The notes under the pieces are model-generated. The model searched no databases, was not told the DNA's origin, and saw only the letters and a program-made list of their open reading frames with translations. A stretch of DNA of 59,368 nt from Nemertoderma westbladi (lineage: Eukaryota > Animalia > Xenacoelomorpha): contig JAUCBJ010009094.1 in the NCBI GenBank assembly GCA_032718475.1, positions 1 to 59,368 of the forward strand, in the 5' to 3' direction. The position numbers were made by a program, and so were the translations under genes. Shown here piece by piece: positions 21,754 to 43,525 of the stretch. Each line of letters opens with the position of its first letter. Position 1 is the stretch's first letter.

Positions 21754-23051
21754 TTAAATAACTTCTTGCAATAAAATGCTACAGGCAATGTTTGCTTTAA
21801 TACCAATTTTTCTCAGATACCATAATATATTGATGAAGGTTATGTGATTCATATTACCTGACTGTAATATCAATAGGCCTAAGGCTAAAATGTAAAAATG
21901 TTTTTTTTTATTTAAAAAGAAATACCAGTAGGCCTACATAGGACCACTGAACCAGTACCCATACACTGCTTACAATACAGTCCTGCAGTCTTCCTCCTAT
22001 CAGCTAGGTATTAGAAGATTCTTAATCTTAGTTCAATTCTGGTAGTGGATTAAGTACCATATATGTCTATGGATATGGTACAGCAGTAGGCTAACTACAT
22101 TGCATGACAGATCACCTAAAATTCAAATTAGGGTGGTGTTAGCCTTCAACTCAGTACCTTAGAGTAAGTAAGCCTTCTGCAGTACTGACTATCAATGGGT
22201 GCAGGACACTTTGCCACACTGCCTTTTCGACATAGAAGTTAGTAAAACAAAAGTGAAGTATCTTGTGCTTGTGTGACGCTAGGGAAAGCAATTTTACTAC
22301 TGATTTTCAGACAATTTCAATCAATTGCTTATCAATTCAATCAATCCTTTAATTATTCCAAATGCACAACCTGATAAATTTACAATTTTTACAGTATGGA
22401 AGCACAATGGCAATTTATTAGACTTGATATAATCAACAATTTACAGATTTACGTTGTATAGTATAGGTACTCAAGCGCGGCTGTACTGTAGCAATAGTTT
22501 AGTAGCCATTACAGTAAAATAAAGATTATAACACAATATCGGTTTGGCGGGCGGTGGGTTGGGGGAAGGACTTGATAGCCTCAAATTTGTTAATTTTTTA
22601 ATTTTAATTGTACTTGATTTAATTTTTTAATGATGTTGAAATGAGATAATGTATAGTGGGTGAACCTGCATTAGTAGATACTCAAGCCACAACTTTATAA
22701 TTGTACATATTTTATCTCTTACAGGTCATCTTATATTTATCATTGAACAGCATCACATGAGGATGAAGACATGAGATAAAAGGGAAAAAACAATGTAAAT
22801 TTGTAATATATTAAAGAATATTACATACACAGTATATTAATATTACAACAAACTGTAGTAACAACTGTGATTTAAACAACTGATGATAACACAATCGGGT
22901 AACGCAATCGACACGCTTACCATACCCTCTACACAAACCAAAAACCTCAAGCACAGCATGGACTGATCAACTGGTGCGCATCCATAATGAATTAATAAAT
23001 TAAAATAATTTTTTCATTTTTACTTAAAAATGATTTAACATAATTTTACAG

Positions 23052-23177
23052 ATATTGATGAATGTACATTAAACACCGACAACTGTCACATTAATGCTGA
23101 CTGTTCCAATACTGTCACTGGATTTAGTTGCAGCTGCAAGTCTGGATATACAGGAGATGGTGTCACTACATGTACAG
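23052..23177 (+). other. Orphan calcium-binding EGF exon (phase 1-1)
   Basis: TTTTACAG| [42 protein letters not shown] |GTAATA; 126 bp; six Cys. Confidence 0.9.
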
Positions 23178-23510
23178 GTAATAAACTTTCTTAAATAAAA
23201 ATCATTGAGTTAATAATAATATGCCAAAATATAATTTTCCGCTTTATATTTACTGTAATACATAAGGTCCTTCCAGGCTTCCCTTACCTATTCTCCATGA
23301 GTGTCGCAATTTCGTTTTTCCTTAGTCAAGCATCCCTTTCATTTGTCTAAATATATGTCATAGCCGGTCTTCCATGGCTATGCTTTTCTTGTGTTGGTTG
23401 CCGGAAAAGTAGATCTGGCATGACCTCATGCTTACTTCTCCAGCAGTGCCCACTGAATCTTAATCGGTGTTCATGGAGGGTGGTTGATAGAGGTGGTATT
23501 AATTAACCGG

Positions 23511-23912
23511 GAGGTTCCCGAGATTGGTGAAGTATTCTCCAGGCGGCTGGGAAGAAAGGGAATTAAATACGCGAATCAGCTGTTAAAACGCTTCAATGAC
23601 CCCAATGGGGGTTACGAAGACTTCCAGCGTTTTCTACTTACAATCTGTGGGCCCCAAATGACTGATACTCGGTTTGATCAAATATTCCAATGGATGCGGG
23701 AACACAGTGACATCGGGGCAAAGGAACATCGGTGTGAAAGTGAAACAACAGGAGACATCAGCAAGATTCAGTGTCTGTGTCACTGTAGTGCTCGATCAAA
23801 CTCTAGGGGAAGAAAATGCAACCCTACAAATTCAAACAACTCATTTATTAAAACATTTTTTAATTGTCTGCTGAAGTGTTTATTTTCCTGCTGCTGGTGT
23901 TCAACACTTTGA
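23511..23912 (+). pseudogene. BAF-like B copy lacking its native start
   Basis: Homologous to 12637-13044, including the CSTL end and 3'UTR to ~24008. Confidence 0.75.
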
Positions 23913-25318
23913 ACCCAGCCATACTATAATAATAATAAATATAATAATAATAAAACTATTCCATAAAAACTATTAATTATTATCTTTATAACGATATTTA
24001 GACATACAGCAGATTAGATTAGATGTATGCACTTTCTAATGGTGAATACATGGAAACGCCTAACTCAAGCGTTCTTCTTTAAATTGCACTGATTCGCCCC
24101 CTCATTAGAAATCACTAGCTGCCTGGTAAAACAATAATGAAAAAAAAAACACTAGCTAACTAATATAAGAGAGTTATAATAGGTTTACACAATAACATAC
24201 TTACCAAGGACTAACATAATAATGACATATTCAGGGCAGGGCACTCCCCTAGTATGCGTTAATCGAAGTAGAGTCTGGTTCATCTTATTATATTAAAATT
24301 TAATTAGCTTATAATATAGGCCTACACCAGTTTTATGTGACCTAGGTGCCCCCCTAATATGTATATTAAATTATATTGTTATTATAGGGGGGGAATATCC
24401 GTTTTTCCACATCCTAAATCTGATTCAAATTTTAAATATTTATTTGTTCTAGAATATTCTATAATACCCCCCTACATTTTCTATAAACATGTTAACTAAA
24501 TTATATTCATGCCTGTGCATGTAGTTAAATAAGAATAATCCACTATATCTTTATAGAATATTTATTTTAACATCAACAATTACCATGACGAACTTCATGT
24601 TATAAATGCAAGCAAAAAAGTTATTGATGTTGTTTGTTCTTTGTCTTCAATTCATTAACTCTATTGTTAATTATTTTGATCAATGATATAATTAAAATTA
24701 ATAGTACAGATAAATACAGATCGCACAATATTGTTTTCATTTTACTTACTGCAAGGTAATATGTCGAAGTTTCTGTATTTGATATCAGGATTATAATTTC
24801 ATATTACAACATTTTTAATTTAACATGCCCTGTATGTTGAGAATATCTTGCTTTACTAATATTATTATGTTAATTATAATTTTTATTTAATTAATAAACT
24901 TCGTTAAAATTTATAGTGAAAGATACCATTACAAATAAATACAACTGTATAATATAAGCCAGTAGTAAGATTTCTTATTGGTCTGGCTCTTCATGAGCAA
25001 GTTTAGTAATATTTAGTAAGCTGAGATATAGGCCAGCCACATTTAGATATAGTTATTCTTTGCAAAGCAGACTTATGTTTCAGCAGGAGCATCCCAGTAT
25101 TATATGAGAATGGGAATGAGTGTAGGTCCGGGGGGGGGGCTTGTTTATTATTGTTAGAGCGTTGCTGGCAAAACTGCTGGCTCAGGCCAGCAGCGTAAAT
25201 ATATGATTTGTAACAATATGAGAAATTTATTAACTTTATAAGAGCGATGGAAATATAAGTCTTTGTATACACATCACTGTCCAGCAAGCAGTTTAATATG
25301 GATATTGTAATATTTTAA

Positions 25319-28300
25319 GGCACTCCCATTAAATTATTGCTAATATTGTGAAATTACGTGGTTGCGACATTTATTGAGTGGCTAATAACCAATTCAAAAT
25401 CAATATCAAAACTGCTTTAGGCTTTCAAACACATTTAAATTAAAAATTAATTTATTTATTGTAACACTAATGCACCCAATCCATATCTGTGTAGTAACAG
25501 TACATCAGTCCATGTTTGACATTAGAGCCCCTACAAACATTTTATATTATATATTTCACACTGAAACCTAGGCCTAAGATTATATTTTCAGAAAATGTAT
25601 AATTACAGTATAAAATAATAATATTGTAATTTAATTATTTTAGGCTCCAGTACAATGCGGCACACAAAGCACAACCACATGGCAAAAAGGTTTTACTGCA
25701 TATGAAACAGTTTAACAAATTTATTTCAACTGATAATCAATCACATCCTAACTGTGGATAACTTATCGTATCTGGCACTTTTTTTATTGAATTTCAATTA
25801 CAGTACAATACATTCATTTAATAGTTATGATATTTATTCAAATAAAGTAATACAGAGCCCACCACCATAACTCCAGCAATTAAAATAAAATGTAAACATA
25901 CAGTTCGCGGCCACACAGTAGTTTAGTTGAGTTTATTTCAGTTCTGCAGTTGTTTTAGTTGTGTGTGGCAAGCACAACCACATTGATGAATCTATGTCAT
26001 TGAGGCCATTAAGAAAGAGCTGGAAATTCTGTACAAGGTCCCAAAATTTCATACCTATACCTTCAGTAGTTTTTGAGAAAGAGGTACATGAATGAAAACA
26101 AATGCAAGCGGCAGAAAAAACATGTTTAAAGTTCAGTGAATATGTAAACTTTAATACATTCGATCATACAATTATTTTCATTCGATCATACAATTATTTT
26201 ACAATGTAAATACACAATTATATTTATGGCAAACAGCAACTATATAACTAAGGAGCATGGAGTATATCAAATACATAAAGTGGTCTAGAACATTCCACTA
26301 TCGTATGTTTTCGGCCCAGTAGGAAGTTTTCGTTTCCGCCTTTGTCGCCGTAGAATTCTAGACTGGCGCTCTAATTTGGATATTTTCCGGTCAGCCTGCA
26401 GGATTCGCTTTCGGTCAAATGTCTGAAAATCCTTAACCGTTTTCTTTGAACTACTGACAAGTTGGTCTAGGACACCAACTCTTCCTTGATAACGTCCATT
26501 GAAGCATATAACTGCATCATTTATGCCAATAGAGAGAGCTTGTTTACTAATGAAGACCCTCTTCGGGCATCGGCTCCAAGCGAGATTATTGAGGCCTTCA
26601 TTCCGATTGTGTCTGACCATGAAGGCATTTAGATAACAATTCCGGTTCTGACAATGCCTTGTAGATAGGTTTAATGGCATCAGTCACAGCACGTGGTAGT
26701 GAGTTTCTGTGTACATAACATTTACCTTCTTTCTGTGCCTGTTTATACTTGCACCATTGATCAGAACATAACTGATGGCTTGGACTCTTGTCGGTAGAGC
26801 ACGTATGAAAGAAAGATGCCCATATAGCCTTCTTCATTTCCCGAACAGAGGAGTTATTTTCCCTTATGGCTCTACCATAATAGAGCTGGAGACTATCAAT
26901 CTTGTCCAAGATCCTTCTTCAGGGTACGGAGCCGTGAACCGAGTCTCTTTTGGACGTGTCCTACACATTCTAACTTGGTTATCTCTTTTCCTTTATAAGG
27001 TTTTGCCTCTTTTACATTGGAAAAGGTTGATGTATCCCCATCCCCAAGGTATTCAACATATGCAAGGCCTCTGTCATTCATGGATCTATTATAGATATTG
27101 AGAGCCCCAACAACCTCCATTCCTCCACTTGACCCACTGTAATTGCTAGTACATTTGTGTGGTAGAGGGTTATCTTCCCTAGAACAGGTTCGACAGAACT
27201 TCGACAATATTTCAACACCTTCCCTGTGTCCATACTTATACAAGAAACAAACCCATTGAGAGAACTGTATCCTCGCCTTTGCCATGACCCGTCAAAAGAT
27301 GCACCTGTATCACTACTACCATCATTAGCATCCTTTACTTCACCTGCAGCCCTTTTCATTGACTTCAATGATTCAATCTCCACTGCACTTTCAATAGCCG
27401 TATTATACGATATTATATTTGATGATATAAGCCCGAAACTGCTGCAAATATTTTGGCAGGCTCCAGCCCAAGTCCAACACATCTAAATCCATACATCATA
27501 CGCAAGTTAAGCTCAAACAACCTTGAATGTGAATGGCTATAGTTAGATGAACTAAATGACTCAGGGGCAATTCTATGAGGATAGGAATATCTACATCTAA
27601 GTTCAAAGGTCTCACAGAATCCACAACTCGTAGGTGAAGGAACAGTGTGGACAGAAATACTATACTTCCGCCGTTTGCAAGTTTTGCAAATTGCAGATTT
27701 ACCTAGTGCTTTATTGAGTATGGACAGATCAATGATATGGAAGGTTGATGGTGGAGTATTCTTATCTTTGGGATTGGGTGGATCCACATACCTCAGTTTT
27801 GATCTGCTAGCACTACTTGTTGGTACAGCTATGATGGGTGCACTTTCATCACTTTGAACATCTATAAAAAGTGGCAATACTCATTATAATAAGTAGTACT
27901 TGCTTGTAAATATGTAAATAATATAACATATGCTAAAACTGTTACCTAAGCATAACCCGTATGATAGCTTATATTGAGGTTGAGGCCATCAATTTTTTTG
28001 GTGTTTTTGGGGTTTTTGTGGTATTTTGGGACAAATTATTATTGTCATATCCAACTACTGGTGGATATGACAATAATACAGTAATAATAATAATAAGGCT
28101 GTTTGTTATCTTAGAAGAAAAAAAGTCATAAATCCACTAATACAGACAAATTACAATGTTATTCACAAACTAACTTGATCAAGAGCAGCCCTATTGTACC
28201 TTCAATGATTATCAAACCGGACATCTACCTACTTTTACTTACTTACCAACGGGTTTGTCATCCAGCTTCTTCACATGTTGATTACCGAGAAATTTATGAT

Positions 28301-28751
28301 GTTTGTATGTGCTTGTACTGCGAGGCATTCTCTTGGTATTAGGCGCACCATATACAATTATAAATTAATACACCTACAGTAACATACCAGCCGAGCTCAA
28401 AGTAACTCAAGCAACCTAAATCCGCAGTGTGCTGCTGCAATAGGCCTACCAGATGTATAAGAAAGACTGTAAATTAAACTTTGAATTTCCCTCTACTTTG
28501 TAAAGTGTGGAAAATAACATAGATTTGTCTCTTTCGCAACAAAATTCTTATGAAGCAAAAAATAGACTTGGCAGTGATTTTTATTAGGGGCGGGTGTGTT
28601 CGGACAACTTTCACAAAAGACGTCATAACTTTTGACAGAGTGACATTCATTGAATATAACTTACATATTCGGAATCTCCATTAAATTGTGGTTTAGAATC
28701 CATAATAAAAAAAAATTTGATTTTTATATTTATTTTTCATGTTGAGCCACC
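25319..28751 (-). mobile_element. Kolobok-type / Mutator-like DDE DNA transposon
   Basis: Contains the transposase; bounded by TTAA|GG ... CC|TTAA (25315-25320, 28750-28755). The 3' boundary is less certain because long TIRs are absent. Confidence 0.6.
26285..28328 (-). pseudogene. Frameshifted, intron-containing transposase
   Basis: Motifs FDGSWQRRGYSSLNG, GSSGGME, YLGDGD, KLECVGHVQKR and CLHGQTQ..NE are spread over several frames; exon 1 MPRSTSTYKHHKFLGNQH starts at 28328. Confidence 0.85.
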
Positions 28752-29052
28752 TTAAATAACTTCTTGCAATAAAATGCTACAGGCAATGTTTGCTTTAATA
28801 CCAATTTTTCTCAGATACCATAATATATTATGGTATAACCTAAGGAACACGTAAGTACATATTACAGTAGGCTTTTATATAACGCTGCCTCACTCACCGC
28901 CCACCACCCGTCTCGTCTCCACAGATGTCGCCAGGCTGATTCCACAGGCCAAGAAGCACAAGACCAAAACAAAAAAACAAAAATGTGGAAACTTCATTGC
29001 AATTGTATTAAAGTTTCCGCAATATTATTAAGAGAAATTTTATGTAGATTTT

Positions 29053-29090
29053 GGGGGGGAACATCCTTGTGCACAAGGACTGACCCCCCC
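29053..29090. other. Unit-junction hairpin / joined complementary termini
   Basis: GGGGGGG-AACA-TCCTTGTG|CACAAGGA-CTGA-CCCCCCC, repeated at each junction. Confidence 0.85.
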
Positions 29091-29178
29091 ACGCACTTTA
29101 AACATTGACCTTCATTACGGATTCTGATTTTAATGAGAATTTACACAATTGTTGACATTGGTAGTTTGCTTTCCGCAA

Positions 29179-29409
29179 ATGAGTGATCAGGTGTGTTCCA
29201 GCTGCAATAAACCAAACTGTTATCGTTGTAGTCAATGCGGTTGCTACTGTCGGTGCTGTGACCACTGCCCCTCAACTAACGCCTGTTACACCTGTTATTG
29301 CTGTTTCAAACCCACCTGTTGCTGTGACTGTGTTCCCTGTGAGCGCTGCGGAAAAGCTGTAAATTATTTTGGAGGTCTTTGTTGCAACTGCACCTCCAGA
29401 GGAGCATAA
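29179..29409 (+). CDS. 76 aa Cys-rich protein (copy 1)
   Basis: ATG at 29179; 23 of 76 residues are Cys with many CxxC/CxC motifs. Confidence 0.7.
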   Translation: MSDQVCSSCNKPNCYRCSQCGCYCRCCDHCPSTNACYTCYCCFKPTCCCDCVPCERCGKAVNYFGGLCCNCTSRGA

Positions 29410-29482
29410 AGCAAAATCAAAACAGATAATCGCCAGCACAACCTCCTGGATAGCACAACTTTAGTGTTATACAATCTCCATA

Positions 29483-30943
29483 ATGAATGCACAGCAGCAA
29501 AAAAGAGACGCATCAGTCCATAAATTACTGGTGAACTCAACCTCCAATGTCCATCTTGATTGCTGGGATGAGAGTGACACACACATAGATCACTTTTGGA
29601 ATAACGTAGGCGGCCAGATCAACAGACTGAATGAACTGAGACTCCAATGGGAAACCTCAAAAGATGTAAAAGCCCAGAACTCCACTTCAAATGAGATCAA
29701 TGCAGTGTGGATTAAAATTCGAACATACAACTCGATGACACACGGAGTGCTGGATGCTTTATCAAAACAAGTTATTGTTCTTCAAGGTTTAGGAGTGGAA
29801 GAAATAAACTCTGTCCTCACTGTGTGGAACGCCATGAAGGGGAAAAGGAACACACAGCAACGAAGTGCAAGTGACAACACTGATTTAAAAGAGTTTACTG
29901 AAACTACAATCAATGTTTGGAATGACACAATAACAATTGGCGCCATACCAAAAACCTGGACAAAGGTCGTTGCAAAGGGGTCTAAACTAGCTAGAGGTGT
30001 GATGTCTGTGATTAGGAGCGGCCAGATGGAACGCCTTGAAGCTGACCCTATACTTAAGGATGTGCCAGGCTTTTTACAAGCGCTTCAAAATACACCAGAG
30101 AAGACTGATCAGAATCCATTAGCCATTGCCAACGCCAACATGCTTGATTACCAACTCCTCCTGATGTATCATTGTAGAAGAAACAACGGACATCTGACAG
30201 TTGGAGATTTCCGGAAGTTTGTAACAAGGATTGCTAGGATGTCGAGGTCACCAAGTTTTAGCAAGGACTTTTGGAGAACTGCTTCTGATGCACCCATTAA
30301 TTCCAATTTCAGGCTCGCCATGCAAGACATCCAAAAATTGGCTTTAAGGGATAATCCTCTCAAAATGTCAGTGAACAGGTTTGTGATGGGTGCATCATGT
30401 TATGAATTGACTGGCAGTGAGCTTATGTGCATGGGTCTAGATACTCCCAAGTTATTCAAAACCATAGCAAGAATGCAAGGTCTAAGCCCTTGTTCATTAG
30501 AGCCTGAGACTACAACGCCTCAAGAACATCTTCTACACCAAGTGGCGACTACAGGCAAGACCACTAACTCCCACCACAACAAAGGCAGTATCTCGAAAGG
30601 GGCTTTGAGCTATGTTACCTTCCGCGCAGAAGGCGGAACTGAGCACGAGGGAGGACCCGAAGAGGAAGAGGAAACAGAAGAGAGGGCTTGGAATCAACCA
30701 GAAGAACAAACGATTGATGTCGAAGATGAAATGGCATGGTTAATACAGTGGGTTTCTTTAGGCTGTCCAGTTAATGACGGCTCTCTAGAAGATGTCGATC
30801 CGGACGCCGGGGCGGCCGGCGGGCTAGAGTCCATGGCACAAGGTGCGGTTGTGAAACAGAGAACGGGTGGGCCGGGCCAAGGAGGAAATTTACTTCCTGC
30901 GCTCGTGGAGGATGGCAAAAAGAAGAAGCCAAGGAACCACTAA
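29483..30943 (+). CDS. 486 aa orphan protein, possibly a viral nucleocapsid/structural protein (copy 1)
   Basis: Long intronless ORF; acidic, Gly-rich C-terminus ending KKKKPRNH; no recognisable family motif. Confidence 0.8.
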   Translation: MNAQQQKRDASVHKLLVNSTSNVHLDCWDESDTHIDHFWNNVGGQINRLNELRLQWETSKDVKAQNSTSNEINAVWIKIRTYNSMTHGVLDALSKQVIVLQGLGVEEINSVLTVWNAMKGKRNTQQRSASDNTDLKEFTETTINVWNDTITIGAIPKTWTKVVAKGSKLARGVMSVIRSGQMERLEADPILKDVPGFLQALQNTPEKTDQNPLAIANANMLDYQLLLMYHCRRNNGHLTVGDFRKFVTRIARMSRSPSFSKDFWRTASDAPINSNFRLAMQDIQKLALRDNPLKMSVNRFVMGASCYELTGSELMCMGLDTPKLFKTIARMQGLSPCSLEPETTTPQEHLLHQVATTGKTTNSHHNKGSISKGALSYVTFRAEGGTEHEGGPEEEEETEERAWNQPEEQTIDVEDEMAWLIQWVSLGCPVNDGSLEDVDPDAGAAGGLESMAQGAVVKQRTGGPGQGGNLLPALVEDGKKKKPRNH

Positions 30944-31283
30944 CCTAAGGAACACGTAAGTACATATTACAGTAGGCTTTTATATAACGCTGCCTCACTC
31001 ACCGCCCACCACCCGTCTCGTCTCCACAGATGTCGCCAGGCTGATTCCACAGGCCAAGAAGCACAAGACCAAAACAAAAAAACAAAAATGTGGAAACTTC
31101 ATTGCAATTGTATTAAAGTTTCCGCAATATTATTAAGAGAAATTTTATGTAGATTTTGGGGGGGAACATCCTTGTGCACAAGGACTGACCCCCCCACGCA
31201 CTTTAAACATTGACCTTCATTACGGATTCTGATTTTAATGAGAATTTACACAATTGTTGACATTGGTAGTTTGCTTTCCGCAA

Positions 31284-31514
31284 ATGAGTGATCAGGTGTG
31301 TTCCAGCTGCAATAAACCAAACTGTTATCGTTGTAGTCAATGCGGTTGCTACTGTCGGTGCTGTGACCACTGCCCCTCAACTAACGCCTGTTACACCTGT
31401 TATTGCTGTTTCAAACCCACCTGTTGCTGTGACTGTGTTCCCTGTGAGCGCTGCGGAAAAGCTGTAAATTATTTTGGAGGTCTTTGTTGCAACTGCACCT
31501 CCAGAGGAGCATAA
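31284..31514 (+). CDS. 76 aa Cys-rich protein (copy 2)
   Basis: Same protein as copy 1. Confidence 0.7.
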   Translation: MSDQVCSSCNKPNCYRCSQCGCYCRCCDHCPSTNACYTCYCCFKPTCCCDCVPCERCGKAVNYFGGLCCNCTSRGA

Positions 31515-31587
31515 AGCAAAATCAAAACAGATAATCGCCAGCACAACCTCCTGGATAGCACAACTTTAGTGTTATACAATCTCCATA

Positions 31588-33048
31588 ATGAATGCACAGC
31601 AGCAAAAAAGAGACGCATCAGTCCATAAATTACTGGTGAACTCAACCTCCAATGTCCATCTTGATTGCTGGGATGAGAGTGACACACACATAGATCACTT
31701 TTGGAATAACGTAGGCGGCCAGATCAACAGACTGAATGAACTGAGACTCCAATGGGAAACCTCAAAAGATGTAAAAGCCCAGAACTCCACTTCAAATGAG
31801 ATCAATGCAGTGTGGATTAAAATTCGAACATACAACTCGATGACACACGGAGTGCTGGATGCTTTATCAAAACAAGTTATTGTTCTTCAAGGTTTAGGAG
31901 TGGAAGAAATAAACTCTGTCCTCACTGTGTGGAACGCCATGAAGGGGAAAAGGAACACACAGCAACGAAGTGCAAGTGACAACACTGATTTAAAAGAGTT
32001 TACTGAAACTACAATCAATGTTTGGAATGACACAATAACAATTGGCGCCATACCAAAAACCTGGACAAAGGTCGTTGCAAAGGGGTCTAAACTAGCTAGA
32101 GGTGTGATGTCTGTGATTAGGAGCGGCCAGATGGAACGCCTTGAAGCTGACCCTATACTTAAGGATGTGCCAGGCTTTTTACAAGCGCTTCAAAATACAC
32201 CAGAGAAGACTGATCAGAATCCATTAGCCATTGCCAACGCCAACATGCTTGATTACCAACTCCTCCTGATGTATCATTGTAGAAGAAACAACGGACATCT
32301 GACAGTTGGAGATTTCCGGAAGTTTGTAACAAGGATTGCTAGGATGTCGAGGTCACCAAGTTTTAGCAAGGACTTTTGGAGAACTGCTTCTGATGCACCC
32401 ATTAATTCCAATTTCAGGCTCGCCATGCAAGACATCCAAAAATTGGCTTTAAGGGATAATCCTCTCAAAATGTCAGTGAACAGGTTTGTGATGGGTGCAT
32501 CATGTTATGAATTGACTGGCAGTGAGCTTATGTGCATGGGTCTAGATACTCCCAAGTTATTCAAAACCATAGCAAGAATGCAAGGTCTAAGCCCTTGTTC
32601 ATTAGAGCCTGAGACTACAACGCCTCAAGAACATCTTCTACACCAAGTGGCGACTACAGGCAAGACCACTAACTTCCACCACAACAAAGGCAGTATCTCG
32701 AAAGGGGCTTTGAGCTATGTTACCTTCCGCGCAGAAGGCGGAACTGAGCACGAGGGAGGACCCGAAGAGGAAGAGGAAACAGAAGAGAGGGCTTGGAATC
32801 AACCAGAAGAACAAACGATTGATGTCGAAGATGAAATGGCATGGTTAATACAGTGGGTTTCTTTAGGCTGTCCAGTTAATGACGGCTCTCTAGAAGATGT
32901 CGATCCGGACGCCGGGGCGGCCGGCGGGCTAGAGTCCATGGCACAAGGTGCGGTTGTGAAACAGAGAACGGGTGGGCCGGGCCAAGGAGGAAATTTACTT
33001 CCTGCGCTCGTGGAGGATGGCAAAAAGAAGAAGCCAAGGAACCACTAA
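31588..33048 (+). CDS. 486 aa orphan protein (copy 2)
   Basis: Differs from copy 1 by one S/F residue. Confidence 0.8.
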   Translation: MNAQQQKRDASVHKLLVNSTSNVHLDCWDESDTHIDHFWNNVGGQINRLNELRLQWETSKDVKAQNSTSNEINAVWIKIRTYNSMTHGVLDALSKQVIVLQGLGVEEINSVLTVWNAMKGKRNTQQRSASDNTDLKEFTETTINVWNDTITIGAIPKTWTKVVAKGSKLARGVMSVIRSGQMERLEADPILKDVPGFLQALQNTPEKTDQNPLAIANANMLDYQLLLMYHCRRNNGHLTVGDFRKFVTRIARMSRSPSFSKDFWRTASDAPINSNFRLAMQDIQKLALRDNPLKMSVNRFVMGASCYELTGSELMCMGLDTPKLFKTIARMQGLSPCSLEPETTTPQEHLLHQVATTGKTTNFHHNKGSISKGALSYVTFRAEGGTEHEGGPEEEEETEERAWNQPEEQTIDVEDEMAWLIQWVSLGCPVNDGSLEDVDPDAGAAGGLESMAQGAVVKQRTGGPGQGGNLLPALVEDGKKKKPRNH

Positions 33049-33388
33049 CCTAAGGAACACGTAAGTACATATTACAGTAGGCTTTTATATAACGCTGCCT
33101 CACTCACCGCCCACCACCCGTCTCGTCTCCACAGATGTCGCCAGGCTGATTCCACAGGCCAAGAAGCACAAGACCAAAACAAAAAAACAAAAATGTGGAA
33201 ACTTCATTGCAATTGTATTAAAGTTTCCGCAATATTATTAAGAGAAATTTTATGTAGATTTTGGGGGGGAACATCCTTGTGCACAAGGACTGACCCCCCC
33301 ACGCACTTTAAACATTGACCTTCATTACGGATTCTGATTTTAATGAGAATTTACACAATTGTTGACATTGGTAGTTTGCTTTCCGCAA

Positions 33389-33619
33389 ATGAGTGATCAG
33401 GTGTGTTCCAGCTGCAATAAACCAAACTGTTATCGTTGTAGTCAATGCGGTTGCTACTGTCGGTGCTGTGACCACTGCCCCTCAACTAACGCCTGTTACA
33501 CCTGTTATTGCTGTTTCAAACCCACCTGTTGCTGTGACTGTGTTCCCTGTGAGCGCTGCGGAAAAGCTGTAAATTATTTTGGAGGTCTTTGTTGCAACTG
33601 CACCTCCAGAGGAGCATAA
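33389..33619 (+). CDS. 76 aa Cys-rich protein (copy 3)
   Basis: Same protein as copy 1. Confidence 0.7.
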   Translation: MSDQVCSSCNKPNCYRCSQCGCYCRCCDHCPSTNACYTCYCCFKPTCCCDCVPCERCGKAVNYFGGLCCNCTSRGA

Positions 33620-33692
33620 AGCAAAATCAAAACAGATAATCGCCAGCACAACCTCCTGGATAGCACAACTTTAGTGTTATACAATCTCCATA

Positions 33693-35153
33693 ATGAATGC
33701 ACAGCAGCAAAAAAGAGACGCATCAGTCCATAAATTACTGGTGAACTCAACCTCCAATGTCCATCTTGATTGCTGGGATGAGAGTGACACACACATAGAT
33801 CACTTTTGGAATAACGTAGGCGGCCAGATCAACAGACTGAATGAACTGAGACTCCAATGGGAAACCTCAAAAGATGTAAAAGCCCAGAACTCCACTTCAA
33901 ATGAGATCAATGCAGTGTGGATTAAAATTCGAACATACAACTCGATGACACACGGAGTGCTGGATGCTTTATCAAAACAAGTTATTGTTCTTCAAGGTTT
34001 AGGAGTGGAAGAAATAAACTCTGTCCTCACTGTGTGGAACGCCATGAAGGGGAAAAGGAACACACAGCAACGAAGTGCAAGTGACAACACTGATTTAAAA
34101 GAGTTTACTGAAACTACAATCAATGTTTGGAATGACACAATAACAATTGGCGCCATACCAAAAACCTGGACAAAGGTCGTTGCAAAGGGGTCTAAACTAG
34201 CTAGAGGTGTGATGTCTGTGATTAGGAGCGGCCAGATGGAACGCCTTGAAGCTGACCCTATACTTAAGGATGTGCCAGGCTTTTTACAAGCGCTTCAAAA
34301 TACACCAGAGAAGACTGATCAGAATCCATTAGCCATTGCCAACGCCAACATGCTTGATTACCAACTCCTCCTGATGTATCATTGTAGAAGAAACAACGGA
34401 CATCTGACAGTTGGAGATTTCCGGAAGTTTGTAACAAGGATTGCTAGGATGTCGAGGTCACCAAGTTTTAGCAAGGACTTTTGGAGAACTGCTTCTGATG
34501 CACCCATTAATTCCAATTTCAGGCTCGCCATGCAAGACATCCAAAAATTGGCTTTAAGGGATAATCCTCTCAAAATGTCAGTGAACAGGTTTGTGATGGG
34601 TGCATCATGTTATGAATTGACTGGCAGTGAGCTTATGTGCATGGGTCTAGATACTCCCAAGTTATTCAAAACCATAGCAAGAATGCAAGGTCTAAGCCCT
34701 TGTTCATTAGAGCCTGAGACTACAACGCCTCAAGAACATCTTCTACACCAAGTGGCGACTACAGGCAAGACCACTAACTTCCACCACAACAAAGGCAGTA
34801 TCTCGAAAGGGGCTTTGAGCTATGTTACCTTCCGCGCAGAAGGCGGAACTGAGCACGAGGGAGGACCCGAAGAGGAAGAGGAAACAGAAGAGAGGGCTTG
34901 GAATCAACCAGAAGAACAAACGATTGATGTCGAAGATGAAATGGCATGGTTAATACAGTGGGTTTCTTTAGGCTGTCCAGTTAATGACGGCTCTCTAGAA
35001 GATGTCGATCCGGACGCCGGGGCGGCCGGCGGGCTAGAGTCCATGGCACAAGGTGCGGTTGTGAAACAGAGAACGGGTGGGCCGGGCCAAGGAGGAAATT
35101 TACTTCCTGCGCTCGTGGAGGATGGCAAAAAGAAGAAGCCAAGGAACCACTAA
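33693..35153 (+). CDS. 486 aa orphan protein (copy 3)
   Basis: Same protein as copy 2. Confidence 0.8.
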   Translation: MNAQQQKRDASVHKLLVNSTSNVHLDCWDESDTHIDHFWNNVGGQINRLNELRLQWETSKDVKAQNSTSNEINAVWIKIRTYNSMTHGVLDALSKQVIVLQGLGVEEINSVLTVWNAMKGKRNTQQRSASDNTDLKEFTETTINVWNDTITIGAIPKTWTKVVAKGSKLARGVMSVIRSGQMERLEADPILKDVPGFLQALQNTPEKTDQNPLAIANANMLDYQLLLMYHCRRNNGHLTVGDFRKFVTRIARMSRSPSFSKDFWRTASDAPINSNFRLAMQDIQKLALRDNPLKMSVNRFVMGASCYELTGSELMCMGLDTPKLFKTIARMQGLSPCSLEPETTTPQEHLLHQVATTGKTTNFHHNKGSISKGALSYVTFRAEGGTEHEGGPEEEEETEERAWNQPEEQTIDVEDEMAWLIQWVSLGCPVNDGSLEDVDPDAGAAGGLESMAQGAVVKQRTGGPGQGGNLLPALVEDGKKKKPRNH

Positions 35154-35485
35154 CCTAAGGAACACGTAAGTACATATTACAGTAGGCTTTTATATAACGC
35201 TGCCTCACTCACCGCCCACCACCCGTCTCGTCTCCACAGATGTCGCCAGGCTGATTCCACAGGCCAAGAAGCACAAGACCAAAACAAAAATGTGGAAACT
35301 TCATTGCAATTGTATTAAAGTTTCCGCAATATTATTAAGAGAAATTTTATGTAGATTTTGGGGGGGAACATCCTTGTGCACAAGGACTGACCCCCCCACG
35401 CACTTTAAACATTGACCTTCATTACGGATTCTGATTTTAATGAGAATTTACACAATTGTTGACATTGGTAGTTTGCTTTCCGCAA

Positions 35486-35716
35486 ATGAGTGATCAGGTG
35501 TGTTCCAGCTGCAATAAACCAAACTGTTATCGTTGTAGTCAATGCGGTTGCTACTGTCGGTGCTGTGACCACTGCCCCTCAACTAACGCCTGTTACACCT
35601 GTTATTGCTGTTTCAAACCCACCTGTTGCAGTGACTGTGTTCCCTGTGAGCGCTGCGGAAAAGCTGTAAATTATTTTGGAGGTCTTTGTTGCAACTGCAC
35701 CTCCAGAGGAGCATAA
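35486..35716 (+). CDS. 76 aa Cys-rich protein (copy 4, one C>S change)
   Basis: T>A at 35630. Confidence 0.7.
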   Translation: MSDQVCSSCNKPNCYRCSQCGCYCRCCDHCPSTNACYTCYCCFKPTCCSDCVPCERCGKAVNYFGGLCCNCTSRGA

Positions 35717-35789
35717 AGCAAAATCAAAACAGATAATCGCCAGCACAACCTCCTGGATAGCACAACTTTAGTGTTATACAATCTCCATA

Positions 35790-37250
35790 ATGAATGCACA
35801 GCAGCAAAAAAGAGACGCATCAGTCCATAAATTACTGGTGAACTCAACCTCCAATGTCCATCTTGATTGCTGGGATGAGAGTGACACACACATAGATCAC
35901 TTTTGGAATAACGTAGGCGGCCAGATCAACAGACTGAATGAACTGAGACTCCAATGGGAAACCTCAAAAGATGTAAAAGCCCAGAACTCCACTTCAAATG
36001 AGATCAATGCAGTGTGGATTAAAATTCGAACATACAACTCGATGACACACGGAGTGCTGGATGCTTTATCAAAACAAGTTATTGTTCTTCAAGGTTTAGG
36101 AGTGGAAGAAATAAACTCTGTCCTCACTGTGTGGAACGCCATGAAGGGGAAAAGGAACACACAGCAACGAAGTGCAAGTGACAACACTGATTTAAAAGAG
36201 TTTACTGAAACTACAATCAATGTTTGGAATGACACAATAACAATTGGCGCCATACCAAAAACCTGGACAAAGGTCGTTGCAAAGGGGTCTAAACTAGCTA
36301 GAGGTGTGATGTCTGTGATTAGGAGCGGCCAGATGGAACGCCTTGAAGCTGACCCTATACTTAAGGATGTGCCAGGCTTTTTACAAGCGCTTCAAAATAC
36401 ACCAGAGAAGACTGATCAGAATCCATTAGCCATTGCCAACGCCAACATGCTTGATTACCAACTCCTCCTGATGTATCATTGTAGAAGAAACAACGGACAT
36501 CTGACAGTTGGAGATTTCCGGAAGTTTGTAACAAGGATTGCTAGGATGTCGAGGTCACCAAGTTTTAGCAAGGACTTTTGGAGAACTGCTTCTGATGCAC
36601 CCATTAATTCCAATTTCAGGCTCGCCATGCAAGACATCCAAAAATTGGCTTTAAGGGATAATCCTCTCAAAATGTCAGTGAACAGGTTTGTGATGGGTGC
36701 ATCATGTTATGAATTGACTGGCAGTGAGCTTATGTGCATGGGTCTAGATACTCCCAAGTTATTCAAAACCATAGCAAGAATGCAAGGTCTAAGCCCTTGT
36801 TCATTAGAGCCTGAGACTACAACGCCTCAAGAACATCTTCTACACCAAGTGGCGACTACAGGCAAGACCACTAACTTCCACCACAACAAAGGCAGTATCT
36901 CGAAAGGGGCTTTGAGCTATGTTACCTTCCGCGCAGAAGGCGGAACTGAGCACGAGGGAGGACCCGAAGAGGAAGAGGAAACAGAAGAGAGGGCTTGGAA
37001 TCAACCAGAAGAACAAACGATTGATGTCGAAGATGAAATGGCATGGTTAATACAGTGGGTTTCTTTAGGCTGTCCAGTTAATGACGGCTCTCTAGAAGAT
37101 GTCGATCCGGACGCCGGGGCGGCCGGCGGGCTAGAGTCCATGGCACAAGGTGCGGTTGTGAAACAGAGAACGGGTGGGCCGGGCCAAGGAGGAAATTTAC
37201 TTCCTGCGCTCGTGGAGGATGGCAAAAAGAAGAAGCCAAGGAACCACTAA
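35790..37250 (+). CDS. 486 aa orphan protein (copy 4)
   Basis: Same protein as copy 2. Confidence 0.8.
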   Translation: MNAQQQKRDASVHKLLVNSTSNVHLDCWDESDTHIDHFWNNVGGQINRLNELRLQWETSKDVKAQNSTSNEINAVWIKIRTYNSMTHGVLDALSKQVIVLQGLGVEEINSVLTVWNAMKGKRNTQQRSASDNTDLKEFTETTINVWNDTITIGAIPKTWTKVVAKGSKLARGVMSVIRSGQMERLEADPILKDVPGFLQALQNTPEKTDQNPLAIANANMLDYQLLLMYHCRRNNGHLTVGDFRKFVTRIARMSRSPSFSKDFWRTASDAPINSNFRLAMQDIQKLALRDNPLKMSVNRFVMGASCYELTGSELMCMGLDTPKLFKTIARMQGLSPCSLEPETTTPQEHLLHQVATTGKTTNFHHNKGSISKGALSYVTFRAEGGTEHEGGPEEEEETEERAWNQPEEQTIDVEDEMAWLIQWVSLGCPVNDGSLEDVDPDAGAAGGLESMAQGAVVKQRTGGPGQGGNLLPALVEDGKKKKPRNH

Positions 37251-37753
37251 CCTAAGGAACACGTAAGTACATATTACAGTAGGCTTTTATATAACGCTGC
37301 CTCACTCACCGCCCACCACCCGTCTCGTCTCCACAGATGTCGCCAGGCTGATTCCACAGGCCAAGAAGCACAAGACCAAAACAAAAAAACAAAAATGTGG
37401 AAACTTCATTGCAATTGTATTAAAGTTTCCGCAATATTATTAAGAGAAATTTTATGTAGATTTTGGGGGGGAACATCCTTGCATACTATTACGTAGCTAT
37501 TACGTGAATTTGGTATATACATTTTCTAATAAATAAATAAAATTTAACAAATTATACAATTTGGTAGATAATACTAGTATATGGATTCTGGAATAAAAAA
37601 AACTAGCTAAACTGTTGTTTGAGTTAGATTGTATATAAAAACAGAACCATGTCCATTTATTGTCGATGGTAGGCGGTGATGGTGCGTCTGCACGTCCAAA
37701 TGAATGCGACTAGCTAAACAAACTAAAGGCCTCCTTCTTTCAAACGATCAATC

Positions 37754-40700
37754 ATGGAAATACCCTGCATTAGTCTCACTGATAGTGAGCTTCTAGCAGA
37801 CCCACCTCCCGAATCTGAAGACATGTACGAATTTGGAGGTCTGCCTCTCTCGAGGCACGATATAGAATCGTTAAATGGGCAAAACTGGTTGACAGATAAC
37901 ATTGTTGAAGCAGTTATATCCAGCTTGTGTTTAGGCTACAACGGCCATGCAAGAGTTTTTAACTCTCATTTCGTTGACATCTTTCAAGAAGGCGGCTTTA
38001 AGAACATACAGAGTCTGAGCAAGGGCGCTTCAGTGCCAGTTTTTGATAACGATTTCATATTTTTCCCTATAAATGTAAACAATTGCCACTGGACCCTTGC
38101 TGTTTACTCCCCTTTAAAGTCAGCAATTTGGTTTTTCGACTCACTGGGGGGCTCTAACCAAACAGTTGTTGATTCTATCAAAGAATGGGTGAATCTTGTT
38201 GCCATTCATTACAATGTGGACCTCCCCCCAATTGCCGTTTATCCCTCCATTCAAAAGGTGCAATACAACACCTATCAATGTGGGGTATATATCTGTAGGT
38301 ATGCAAAGTGGTGTATTGAAGGTTACTCACGATCGGATTTTGAGGATATCAATGATATTACCATTTCCAAGCATCGTAGTGATCTGTATTCTGATATTTC
38401 CAGAAATGCCCCTCTAGTTTGGTCAGCCAATCAACAGAAGGCATCGACACCTACACCACCTCCAATTGGAGATCCCACCCCGTTTCCGAATTCTCACCCA
38501 CCCGTGCTTAACCATACACAATCAATCTCACCGCTAGAGCCGAAACAACCTCCAATCCAATCAGCCGAATCCTCCAAGGATAACAATCAAATTGGAGACC
38601 CCACTCTGGTCCCGAACTCTCATCCACCCCTATTTACCCATACTCCATCAATTGCACCGCTAGAGCCGGGACAACCTCCCACCGTTACCAGTGGAGGACT
38701 GTCCCTCAAGTTCCCATGCACCACCTGCTCTAAATTATGCTGTGTCAACCCCAAGGGAGGGCTGCGCAAACACAGATCCACTGAAGGCACCTCTTGTCCT
38801 GGGTCAGGTTCCATCATTACATTTCCAGCCACCGGTTCCTCCGCTCCTGCTGAAGCTGCAATTCCACCCGACTTACACTCTAATCAGCCAGCCATGTCTC
38901 AAGGGTCACCCGGACTACTGTCCCAACCGTTTACCAATGACACTCCATCCCCTGCTCCTGTGGTAGCCAGCCAGAGCGCCATATCAGATTCACTTAGCAG
39001 TGCATTCGAAACCCTCACTAGGATCAGAACCCTGACTCGTATCCCCAGGGGTGCAAGACTAAAAGCAGCCACACTTTACAGTAGTCTCTGTGATGCCATC
39101 GTCCTCAACAACAGTCAGTCAAACTGGTTAAACCTGCTGGCCTTTCCATTCTCTCTCAGAGTACCCTCCCAGGGATCAAGGTCCAGACGTGGCCGGAGGG
39201 CTATCGGTCCAGCCTGCAAATCACTCACAGCCAAGGTAAAGGACCAACTGTTGGAATTTGAAGAGATGGTCAAGAACACCAAAGAATTACTAGTACTGCC
39301 TACGACTAGCCTTCCATCCCATCTGAAGCCCAAGACTCAACAATCCTCGGATGACATGCTTGGGAAATTGATAGCCTCTAAGATAGAAGAAGGAAATGTG
39401 AAAGCAGCTGCACGACTAGCATCCTCATCAGCCACTATAGCCCCAGCCACCTCAGAGACCCTTGAAGCCCTCCGACTCCTTCATCCTACACGCCCATCAG
39501 ATGACTTCCACGGAGTACCGTCATTAGAGGAAGCAGATGTCCCGACCCTCGAGCTATCTTACCCAGAGGTTCTAAAATCAATCAAGCTATTCCCCAATGG
39601 CTCGGCACCAGGTCCCGACAACTGCCGTCCTCAGTTCCTCAAGGACATGATCTCATCATCAGTGGGGGATGCTGCCCTGGCTTCCCTCAAGGCTATGACA
39701 TCGGTAGCTAATATCATGCTAAAGGGAGGAGTGCCCCAGGAAGTTCTCCCTTACCTCTATGGCGCCAGGCTTTGTGCTTTCACTAAACCAGCAGGTGGAG
39801 TTCGCCCCATAGCCGTGGGGTGCACTCTGCGTCGACTTACCGCCAAAACAGGCTGCCATTCAGCGGCAAAGCATTCCGGTTTAAAGCTAGGACCCCATCA
39901 GCTAGGGTTCGGGACCCCCCGGGGTGCAGAAGCAGCAGTACATGCAGCCAGGCGTTTCCTCAGTGAGTCAATAGAGAGAGAGACAGTCATGATCAAAATT
40001 GATTTCTCAAATGCCTTCAACAGTATTCACCGTGGACCAGCCTTGAGGGCAGTGCTAAAGAACCTCCCACCACTATACAACCTGGCATATCAGTCATATT
40101 CGCAACCCTCTCTCCTATTCTACAATGGGACAACAATTGCCTCTGACGATGGTATGCAACAGGGAGACCCACTAGCCTCTCTATTCTTCAGCAACGACAC
40201 AATTGAACTTGTCGATAGCATGGAATCTCCTCTCAACGTGTGGTTCCTGGATGACGGTTCCTTGGGTGGAACACCATCTGTTGTTGCTTCTGACCTGAAG
40301 AGGGTCATAGCCGAGGCAGCAAAGCTAGGGCTTATGGTCAAGGCATCCAAGTGTGAGTTAATCTTTGGCAAGCACTTTCCCTTACAACTGAAAGAAGAGA
40401 CAACAGCTCTGTTTGATGCCATCACACCAAGCATTAAACCAATCGATTTTTCTGATGCGCTGTTGCTTGGATCACCCCTAGGAGATTCAGCCATGGAAAA
40501 GATCCTTGAAGAGAAGGAATCAGACCTCTCTAGGTTCGCAGACCGCCTCCACCTTCTATCGGCGCATGACGCCCTATACCTACTCAGACATTGCTTTGCC
40601 ATTCCGAAGTTGATGTATGTGCTGCGGTGTTCACCCGCCTTTGGATCGCCTCGATTGAAGTCTCTAGATGATAAGATTCGGCAGTGCTGCCAAATTGTGC

Positions 40701-41743
40701 TCAACACTAGGATTGGGGGCGATGCTTGGGCCCAGGCTTCCCTTCCAATATCTTTGGGCGGGCTGGGGGTTAGAAGCACATCCGACGTAGCTTTACCAGC
40801 TTTCCTGGCTTCCAGCCATGGGTGCATCCCACTGCTTAACACCCTACTACCCAGTTCCATTTCCAGCATCCCCAACCCACTCCTAATAGCTGCGAAGCAA
40901 CTACTACCTACCGATTTTCCTGAACCAATCAATCAAGCCATTCAGAAAGGATGGGATGCCCCGCTGTGCTCATCACGACAGGATGAACTGATCACCAAAG
41001 CCTCATCAGCAAAAGAGAAGGCTCGTCTCCTAGCTGCCGCCGCAGACCACGCCGGGGACTGGCTAAGGGCACTGCCGGTATCATCCCTAGGCCTTCGCCT
41101 CAGTGATGAGCAGCTGCGGGTGGGAGCAGCTCTCCGCTTGGGTACACCTATTTGCGAGGAGCATTCCTGCAGGGGTTGCGGGTTGGAAGTCGACACGAGT
41201 GGAAGTCATGGCCTCAGCTGCTTACACAATTATGGGAAATACACCCGTCATGCAGAGGCCAATGACATCATTCACCGTGCACTCTCATCAGCCGGCATTG
41301 CCTCCACCTTGGAGCCTCGAGGACTTTCACAAGACGGCAAGACACCAGACGGTTTGACCTTTGCCCCTTGGTCCTCAGGCCGCCCACTCGTTTGGGACTT
41401 TACTTGCAGGGACACCCTCGCTCCTTCCTATCTACCCGAGACAAGTAAATCTGCAGGTGCAGCCGCTTTAATGGCAGAGACCAGTAAAGGAAATAAGTAT
41501 GCTGCGCTCCAGCACCACCACTTATTCCGCACTATTGCCTTAGAGACCTTAGGCCCAATCGGTGCAGAAGGCACCGCAGTACTGCGGGAGATAGGGCGGA
41601 GAATCGCCAAGGAAACAGGTGAACCTAGGTCCACAGAATTCCTTTTCCAGCGGCTCTCAATTGCAGTGGTCAGAGGGAACGCGACATCTGTCCTAGGTAC
41701 CACCCCCCACCAGGCGGGCCTTGATGAGGTATTCCTACTCTGA
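37754..41743 (+). CDS. Intact single ORF of a CRE-clade (RLE-type) non-LTR retrotransposon: Ulp1/C48 protease - Pro-rich linker/Zn finger - RT - restriction-like endonuclease
   Basis: Protease WLTDNIV, HWTL, FFDSL, QxNxxxCG. RT GVRPIAVG, IDFSNAFNS, GMQQGDPL, FLDDG. RLE CxxC..H..C, RH, PDG..VWD, ExxKxxKY. Confidence 0.92.
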   Translation: MEIPCISLTDSELLADPPPESEDMYEFGGLPLSRHDIESLNGQNWLTDNIVEAVISSLCLGYNGHARVFNSHFVDIFQEGGFKNIQSLSKGASVPVFDNDFIFFPINVNNCHWTLAVYSPLKSAIWFFDSLGGSNQTVVDSIKEWVNLVAIHYNVDLPPIAVYPSIQKVQYNTYQCGVYICRYAKWCIEGYSRSDFEDINDITISKHRSDLYSDISRNAPLVWSANQQKASTPTPPPIGDPTPFPNSHPPVLNHTQSISPLEPKQPPIQSAESSKDNNQIGDPTLVPNSHPPLFTHTPSIAPLEPGQPPTVTSGGLSLKFPCTTCSKLCCVNPKGGLRKHRSTEGTSCPGSGSIITFPATGSSAPAEAAIPPDLHSNQPAMSQGSPGLLSQPFTNDTPSPAPVVASQSAISDSLSSAFETLTRIRTLTRIPRGARLKAATLYSSLCDAIVLNNSQSNWLNLLAFPFSLRVPSQGSRSRRGRRAIGPACKSLTAKVKDQLLEFEEMVKNTKELLVLPTTSLPSHLKPKTQQSSDDMLGKLIASKIEEGNVKAAARLASSSATIAPATSETLEALRLLHPTRPSDDFHGVPSLEEADVPTLELSYPEVLKSIKLFPNGSAPGPDNCRPQFLKDMISSSVGDAALASLKAMTSVANIMLKGGVPQEVLPYLYGARLCAFTKPAGGVRPIAVGCTLRRLTAKTGCHSAAKHSGLKLGPHQLGFGTPRGAEAAVHAARRFLSESIERETVMIKIDFSNAFNSIHRGPALRAVLKNLPPLYNLAYQSYSQPSLLFYNGTTIASDDGMQQGDPLASLFFSNDTIELVDSMESPLNVWFLDDGSLGGTPSVVASDLKRVIAEAAKLGLMVKASKCELIFGKHFPLQLKEETTALFDAITPSIKPIDFSDALLLGSPLGDSAMEKILEEKESDLSRFADRLHLLSAHDALYLLRHCFAIPKLMYVLRCSPAFGSPRLKSLDDKIRQCCQIVLNTRIGGDAWAQASLPISLGGLGVRSTSDVALPAFLASSHGCIPLLNTLLPSSISSIPNPLLIAAKQLLPTDFPEPINQAIQKGWDAPLCSSRQDELITKASSAKEKARLLAAAADHAGDWLRALPVSSLGLRLSDEQLRVGAALRLGTPICEEHSCRGCGLEVDTSGSHGLSCLHNYGKYTRHAEANDIIHRALSSAGIASTLEPRGLSQDGKTPDGLTFAPWSSGRPLVWDFTCRDTLAPSYLPETSKSAGAAALMAETSKGNKYAALQHHHLFRTIALETLGPIGAEGTAVLREIGRRIAKETGEPRSTEFLFQRLSIAVVRGNATSVLGTTPHQAGLDEVFLL

Positions 41744-41950: not shown

Positions 41951-43399
41951 CCCTGGAGACTTGAGATTACTTTTATAACAATAGATGGATGATTGACCGT
42001 CTGTTCGTATTAGAGTATTTCTTACTCTGAGAGAGAATTTGATGTTTTACGAATTTTAGCTCCTCTATATACGAACTTTGTACAATATTATGTAGTTAAC
42101 CGGTTTCTTGTAATTTAGTTTTGCTTTAATGTATATCTGGACTCTATTAATTAAAATAATAATATATTGATGAAGGTTATGTGATTCATATTACCTGACT
42201 GTAATATCAATAGGCCTAAGGCTAAAATGTAAAAATGTTTTTTTTTATTTAAAAAGAAATACCAGTAGGCCTACATAGGACCACTGAACCAGTACCCATA
42301 CACTGCTTACAATACAGTCCTGCAGTCTTCCTCCTATCAGCTAGGTATTAGAAGATTCTTAATCTTAGTTCAGATTTTCAAAAATTCTGGTAGTGGATTA
42401 AGTACCATATATGTCTATGGATATGGTACAGCAGTAGGCTAACTACATTGCATGACAGATCACCTAAAATTCAAATTAGGGTGGTGTTAGCCTTCAACTC
42501 AGTACCTTAGAGTAAGTAAGCCTTCTGCAGTACTGACTATCAATGGGTGCAGGACACTTTGCCACACTGCCTTTTCGACATAGAAGTTAGTAAAACAAAA
42601 GTGAAGTATCTTGTGCTTGTGTGACGCTAGGGAAAGCAATTTTACTACTGATTTTCAGACAATTTCAATCAATTGCTTATCAATTCAATCAATCCTTTAA
42701 TTATTCCAAATGCACAACCTGATAAATTTACAATTTTTACAGTATGGAAGCACAATGGCAATTTATTAGACTTGATATAATCAACAATTTACAGATTTAC
42801 GTTGTATAGTATAGGTACTCAAGCGCGGCTGTACTGTAGCAATAGTTTAGTAGCCATTACAGTAAAATAAAGATTATAACACAATATCGGTTTGGCGGGC
42901 GGTGGGTTGGGGGAAGGACTTGATAGCCTCAAATTTGTTAATTTTTTAATTTTAATTGTACTTGATTTAATTTTTTAATGATGTTGAAATGAGATAATGT
43001 ATAGTGGGTGAACCTGCATTAGTAGATACTCAAGCCACAACTTTATAATTGTACATATTTTATCTCTTACAGGTCATCTTATATTTATCATTGAACAGCA
43101 TCACATGAGGATGAAGACATGAGATAAAAGGGAAAAAACAATGTAAATTTGTAATATATTAAAGAATATTACATACACAGTATATTAATATTACAACAAA
43201 CTGTAGTAACAACTGTGATTTAAACAACTGATGATAACACAATCGGGTAACGCAATCGACACGCTTACCATACCCTCTACACAAACCAAAAACCTCAAGC
43301 ACAGCATGGACTGATCAACTGGTGCGCATCCATAATGAATTAATAAATTAAAATAATTTTTTCATTTTTACTTAAAAATGATTTAACATAATTTTACAG

Positions 43400-43525
43400 A
43401 TATTGATGAATGTACATTAAACACCGACAACTGTCACATTAATGCTGACTGTTCCAATACTGTCACTGGATTTAGTTGCAGCTGCAAGTCTGGATATACA
43501 GGAGATGGTGTCACTACATGTACAG
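43400..43525 (+). other. Orphan cbEGF exon copy
   Basis: Same as 23052-23177, with splice sites. Confidence 0.9.

Follow-up and report, generated by a model that had tools for sequence, protein, structure and literature searches.

A tandem array in Nemertoderma westbladi that reads as a Hareavirales-type nucleoprotein segment, probably copied in by a neighbouring CRE-like retrotransposon

RNA viruses mostly leave endogenous copies that are mRNA fragments, with a route of arrival that cannot be traced; a chimera between LCMV and an IAP element was reportedly described by Geuking in 2009. Retroelement–virus chimeras with LTR elements are represented by the LTR-linked endogenous viral elements (EVEs) of Aedes (10.1101/127498), chimeric LINE insertions with one duplication exist (PMC2104539), LINE-1 copies viral mRNA (PMC4038843), and full-length segment EVEs have been reported in mosquitoes (PMC10956553), all as given in the available portions of these sources. 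The locus described here would share with the LTR–virus and LINE chimeras (LCMV-IAP, the Aedes EVEs, U6-L1 and Magnaporthe WEIRD-MGL) a template switch from retroelement RNA to foreign RNA, in the same polarity and within one duplication (excerpts of 10.1101/127498 and PMC2104539). Unlike in those chimeras, the carrier is an RLE-type non-LTR element, and the cargo, in four tandem copies, appears to be an entire segment that keeps its two ends and derives from a replication RNA lacking poly(A). With LINE-1 viral cDNA and the endogenous bornavirus-like N it would share the copying of negative-strand virus RNA by a non-LTR reverse transcriptase (RT), but those copies come from polyadenylated mRNA, whereas here there is no poly(A) and both promoter arms are kept (PMC4038843, in its accessible part). 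In the open-access literature searched, part of it available as excerpts, nothing we found describes a tandem array of end-complete segments that shares a single duplication with an RLE-type element.

The whole stretch of DNA analysed, hereafter the window, is 59,368 nt of N. westbladi contig JAUCBJ010009094.1 (forward strand; coordinates are window positions). Positions 28836-37481 contain a 4.1-copy head-to-tail array of a 2105-nt unit, which we read, with a probability of about three in four, as an undescribed Hareavirales-type (arena/mypo/nairo-like) nucleoprotein segment that was copied into the genome, in a single insertion, by the CRE-like retrotransposon next to it. That the array represents a real endogenous viral segment with an unusually complete capture record is well supported. 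It begins with a 236-nt partial unit (28836..29071), the last 236 nt of the 3' non-coding end, with the same sequence as at the end of unit 1 and of unit 2. Four units follow, all on the plus strand like the partial one: unit 1 (29072..31176, 2105 nt), with a single private difference at unit position 1499; unit 2 (31177..33281, 2105 nt); unit 3 (33282..35378, 2097 nt), which lacks 8 nt of the A-rich tract in the 3' non-coding part; and unit 4 (35379..37481, 2103 nt), which stops 2 nt before the junction centre and has a private difference in its Cys-rich ORF. Private differences occur once each in three of the four units, and three in 8.6 kb fit either RT error or later mutation. The unit has 45% GC against 36% in the flank, and its TpA content also differs from that of the flank. 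No poly(A) tail or foreign leader was found at the unit junctions; the 3' non-coding part contains an AU-rich imperfect hairpin (28976-29029) in addition to the A-rich tract. Unit 1 is likely a full-length viral segment in coding sense, and the absence of any ORF longer than 54 aa on the minus strand of the unit bears out the coding (antigenomic) orientation proposed in the sequence-only reading.

The head-to-tail junction of the two segment ends, or panhandle arms (29052..29091), is present at each unit boundary. Its arms (29052-29071 and 29072-29091) are 20 nt each, 80% complementary and spacer-free; they form a proximal and a distal duplex of 8 bp each, on either side of a 4x4 internal loop. 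The junction motif occurs at 29065, 31170, 33275 and 35372, the four internal boundaries, and all four are letter-identical. The local fold of 29030-29113 has -26 kcal/mol (z -3.0), and none of 200 shuffles was equally stable. With a cut before 29072, the two ends of the unit pair more stably than in any other of the 2105 rotations (-30.2 kcal/mol; mean over the rotations -6.4, sd 3.4), and this cut is the only one with at least five terminal perfect pairs (eight). The whole-unit minimum-energy fold pairs both ends in either sense. Complementary 5' and 3' ends with a proximal and a distal duplex, the feature by which segments of Bunyaviricetes and Hareavirales are defined (PMC9836281, relevant excerpt), are therefore found here. 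The earlier claim of an interrupted terminal complementarity at this junction was confirmed, except that the distal duplex measures 8 bp and not 7. The exact terminal base of each end is ambiguous, since the two central junction bases could belong to one end as well as to the other.

The unit is present in three DNA runs (X1, X2 and X3) of one organism from two studies; X1 is perhaps the source of the window itself, and X2 and X3 are one sample. Two further runs, X4 and X5, do not cover the unit and are uninformative. Five of the 17 loose ends listed (19 were found) lie on the unit, every one at most 2 nt from the cut, and they represent four distinct junctions with DNA other than the flank of the window. 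Together with the right end of the array in the window, this makes five distinct foreign-DNA junctions at most 2 nt from the cut (four of them in contigs, from two samples), the chance of one junction falling so near being 5/2105. In a 2180-nt X3 contig, foreign DNA flanks one unit on both sides; this unit has 12 differences from the common unit of the window, two flank motifs of the insertion are absent from the window, and the contig could stand for a monomer or for an array that assembly has collapsed. On its unit side, the contig across the right junction of the window extends over only 16 letters. The left junction occurs in the window assembly alone and not among the listed contig pieces; it is the sole internal boundary, as expected where synthesis stopped. 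The right junctions at 37479-37483 in the window and at 37482 in an X2 loose end share the same stop 2 nt before the junction centre and the same next base; for two apparently independent junctions, this possibly reflects dinucleotide-repeat slippage at the start of the jump. A circular template would have been opened at arbitrary points, so the one copied here likely ended where the unit does. The independent junctions with foreign DNA at the cut thus speak for the linear ends of the sequence-only reading and against the alternative that it had offered, the origin hairpin of a covalently circular element.

The same junctions bear on the explanation that survives best beside ours, namely that the virus itself makes head-to-tail multimeric or covalently closed S-type RNA, which the RT would copy in one pass or by rolling circle. 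Multimeric S RNAs of arenaviruses exist, the four junctions of the array are letter-identical, and a 60-nt X2 contig from the second study has the same junction with no differences (32 and 28 letters on its two sides, where the bar of the tool is 31). A closed circle, however, would need a site-specific break to account for five foreign junctions at the ends, and no Rfam ribozyme was found in 24000-46000. The literature material found, available in part, concerned protein multimers, and no support for multimeric viral RNA was met in it. We regard this explanation as improbable.

The larger ORF of the unit (486 aa; 29483..30943, plus strand, in unit 1) likely encodes a nairo/arenavirus-type nucleoprotein, as suggested by four remote homologues, an invariant motif and fold matches. 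A word-index protein search with it gave no match among 6834 candidates, and the same search with a five-sequence alignment returned one of its own members only. Pfam and PDB sequence searches found no viral N family for this ORF, the ESM Atlas had nothing at 0.9 or above for it or for homologue P0004, and a protein scan of viral and metagenome contigs confirmed none. A HMMER pass over 1.84 billion representatives returned five matches at E up to 0.001, of which four contain the same C-terminal motif with E-H-x-x-H, G and N invariant; the fifth, P0005, was a 33-residue repeat match and was dropped. The four homologues are unnamed singletons, one on a 1938-nt contig and two, P0002 and P0004, on contigs of 19.6 kb and 37 kb. 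P0002 and P0004 may be further endogenous insertions of this viral lineage, in the genomes of different hosts. In the CCHFV nucleoprotein, EHLLHQ occupies residues 452-457, i.e. its end (PMC6147494, available in part).

A single-sequence fold model of the ORF was discarded (pLDDT 33), and the comparisons were made with a model of residues 61-390 from the five-sequence alignment, whose pLDDT of 44 is poor. Against viral models, the top Foldseek probabilities were 0.44 for an arenavirus N, 0.30 for a nairovirus N and 0.30 for a bunya-like N, and against the PDB the CCHFV N reached 0.28, all at E >0.1. When 971 chains were realigned, 10 of the top 11 rows were nairovirus or Lassa N (Z 4.4-4.9, rmsd 5.5-7.2, 132-169 aligned residues), phenuivirus N rows lying lower at Z 2.5-3.4, and E288 of the model landed on CCHFV E452 in three chains (99-296/116-460, 99-295/117-459 and 105-297/122-461). 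In a Foldseek-free search of 48161 chains, two PH domains came first, on about 55 N-terminal residues, and the Songling, Lassa and Erve N ranked 3, 6 and 15; these three were the sole rows with more than 120 aligned residues among the best 50 listed. The PH-like match (model residues 1-68) has pLDDT <45 and is not claimed. Structural Z values of 4.0-4.9 with rmsd 5-7 are within background, and the nucleoprotein assignment is for that reason likely, not proven; we hold it with good confidence. Eight differences fall within the ORF, four of them silent where 22-33% would be by chance, and this count gives no clear sign of purifying selection.

Upstream of the nucleoprotein-like ORF, in the same sense and in all four units, is a 76-aa ORF with 23 Cys (29179..29409, plus strand). 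It had no match in Pfam and none in the PDB at E <1; its predicted product is likely metal-binding.

For the family placement, we compared the unit ends with six representative published end pairs, hand-picked from the accessible part of the PMC7551631 supplement, at three offsets each; C-rich tracts inflate such match counts. First, the 5' arm matched the end of Hubavirus (a mypovirus) at 14/19 positions at a one-base offset, a score reached in 23 of 100000 shuffles, followed by antennavirus (11/18), Dugbe (11/19) and Heartland (8/19). Second, the 3' arm matched antennavirus, Dugbe and Hubavirus about equally, at 10-12/19, without discrimination; the Hubavirus value of 10/19 concerns the single mypovirid species compared. 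Among these six references, the unit ends appear to resemble those of Mypoviridae and fish antennavirus more than those of Phenuiviridae. Of the bunya-like ends claimed earlier, the two-duplex architecture stands, with the closest references outside Phenuiviridae, and the bunya-like nature as such gains from the nairo/arenavirus-type nucleoprotein signal.

The likeness to Mypoviridae (Hubei myriapoda virus 5 S), drawn from the published ends in the supplement and not from proteins, consists of the 5'-arm match and a C-run/G-run distal duplex, and the N segment there is of similar size (2.6 kb; PMC10770932). Their segments are monocistronic, however, whereas here the Cys-rich ORF precedes the N-like ORF in all four units (translation predicted). 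Among Arenaviridae, fish antennavirus has a similar proximal CACA motif and C5/G5 distal duplex in its sampled end pair, and the modelled fold resembles the N-terminal domain of Lassa NP (Z 4.3-4.7). In contrast to that family, the unit has neither CGCAC ends nor an ambisense ORF or an intergenic-hairpin ambisense layout, its 486-aa ORF ends in an acidic-then-basic tail where arenaviruses have an exonuclease, with no such domain visible, and the searches recognised no RING spacing in its Cys-rich ORF; the full arenavirus end was absent from every observed junction. With the N of Nairoviridae (CCHFV, Hazara, Kupe, Erve and Songling), the model would be colinear over about 150-170 head-domain residues with EHLLHQ in structural register, but identity is 5-13%, the unit ends are not UCUCAAAG, and the protein continues beyond the motif for about 100 additional acidic and basic residues. 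Phenuiviridae differ in both their ACACAAAG ends, with 8 and 7 of 19 positions matching Heartland S, and their phenuivirus-type N. The unit lacks a defining feature of each named family tested and is therefore filed as Hareavirales S-like, family unplaced.

An end-motif scan of viral contigs found nothing, and that of metagenomes found 19 loci, none with N similarity and one of the 19 with a loose second arm; we treated these as chance matches. Neither scan showed a polymerase or glycoprotein segment, no RNA run containing the unit was listed, and no named close relative was found. Because neither a polymerase segment nor RNA evidence was found, the word virus refers here to the ends and one protein. 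The terminal sequences and the layout, with a Cys-rich ORF before N, belong to a lineage that sequence searches leave unnamed, and they can be used to hunt for its polymerase.

As another possibility, the unit would belong to the host, as a non-autonomous element or a satellite-like repeat that the CRE-like element mobilises, and its ORF would resemble a viral one by chance. The several insertions, in at least two haplotypes of one organism, would fit such a repeat, as would the weak fold scores and the two of four homologues that lie on the 19.6-kb and 37-kb contigs. Long contigs are equally compatible with other endogenous copies, however, and the 1938-nt contig of another homologue fits a free segment. 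The two-duplex bunya-type ends, the register of the CCHFV N motif, and a GC and TpA content unlike the flank likewise count against a host repeat, which we consider very unlikely.

To the right of the array, the window contains an intact 1329-aa ORF (37754..41743, plus strand) with Ulp1 protease (PF02902), RT (PF00078), CCHC knuckle and PD..D restriction-like endonuclease domains or motifs. It has 423 relatives at E<=1e-30 and 40-50% identity to hundreds of elements, the second-best match, and the sole named one, being a SLACS protein. A single ORF with an RT, a C-terminal CCHC and PD..D endonuclease and a target-site duplication, as in CRE/SLACS elements, are all present, and by sequence the element appears to be a CRE/SLACS-like non-LTR retrotransposon. 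Between the array and its multicopy body lies a low-copy spacer of about 120 nt (37482..37600, plus strand), at a depth of 41-43 in run X1 versus 321-342 for the body; it is either 5' flank carried along by transduction or part of another template. In several contigs the junction with the retroelement lies at 37588-37605, possibly the usual position of its 5' end, and 37507-37545 resembles another repeat family.

One 10-bp target-site duplication (left copy 28820..28829, right copy 42159..42168) encloses the array and the retrotransposon, which have the same orientation. The 10-mer is single at empty sites (21822, and on the minus strand near 52912-52925) and double around the insert, and the empty-site join was found in an X3 contig too. 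The interrupted host sequence is a Mutator-like element (PF20700; minus strand, left part 24868..28829, resuming at 42159-44358) with 99.4% identity to an uninterrupted inverted copy at about 50719-56871. The filled and empty copies differ by eight mismatches and a few gaps over about 6.2 kb, and the insertion is therefore recent. The window has three near-identical Mutator-like copies with a frameshifted transposase (20519-23504; 24868-28829 with 42159-44358; 50719-56871). At the left junction, 6-7 extra nt copy the upstream flank and complete a perfect 22-nt palindrome (28815..28836), the longest in the window and missing at the empty site, a pattern suggesting that snap-back synthesis extended the target end when the insert was joined to it.

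Rolling-circle elements typically show tandem arrays and GC-clamped hairpins; on that view, a circular DNA element would have integrated as a concatemer, and the junction would be its replication origin. Here the arms meet without a loop motif, however, there is no Rep-like ORF or Pfam match, no viral contig matched, and the insert bears the marks of retrotransposition, which makes this origin highly implausible. Lastly, an array produced from one or two copies by faulty assembly, suggested by units >99.5% identical and an insert spanned whole by none of the listed contigs, is hardly credible given the private differences in three units, a self-closing X1 short-read contig of period 2105, and a unit depth of 212.7 versus 41-43 at the junction (about five-fold, depth not being equal to copy number).

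In target-primed reverse transcription, synthesis starts at the 3' end of the element and proceeds leftwards. For a capture by the retrotransposon, its endonuclease would nick the target and its RT would copy its own RNA to the 5' end. The RT would then switch to a full-length viral RNA of coding sense, starting at its 3' end, and copy all of it, the template being the antigenome rather than the capped, truncated mRNA of bunya-type viruses (PMC9836281, in the excerpt available). One or more further jumps, from the 5' end of the segment back to a 3' end, would follow, the two central junction bases serving as microhomology, until the last pass halted after 236 nt and was joined to the target via a short snap-back extension. 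The R2 RT adds up to five untemplated bases, jumps by microhomology to another template end and displaces annealed strands (PMC4117753, available in part); template jumping is known for R2, and by analogy we ascribe it to the CRE-like element. Repeated jumps are our tentative explanation for the four copies, with a little less than even odds; later unequal recombination between the 234-nt direct repeats is a possible one that we favour less, and a multimeric RNA an unlikely one. A bolder and rather doubtful extension is that the virus represents a new arena/mypo-like family and that the CRE-like element captures its replication RNA, closed by the panhandle, time and again, reading round it as a pseudo-circle and writing end-complete tandem arrays into the germ line at several loci. 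If so, read-through transcripts of the arrays would contain full segments with both promoter arms and could serve, against the live virus, as inherited decoys or as a source of small RNAs. Carrier, target scar, empty site and both viral ends are preserved together in one very young insertion, and this anatomy therefore offers a natural case for testing whether an RT jumps end to end onto viral replication RNA.

Elsewhere in the window, there is a 100-N gap at 9906-10005. Short ORFs with a barrier-to-autointegration-factor domain (PF02961) at 12276-13041 and 23457-23909 belong to a local repeat family. Inverted, broken pieces of an APE-type LINE, with RT and weak endonuclease matches, lie at 45324-46703 (minus strand) and 49195-50493 (plus strand), and a 52-nt four-copy minisatellite recurs at 4940-5150, 10565-10775 and 18641-18851 in a thrice-repeated segment.
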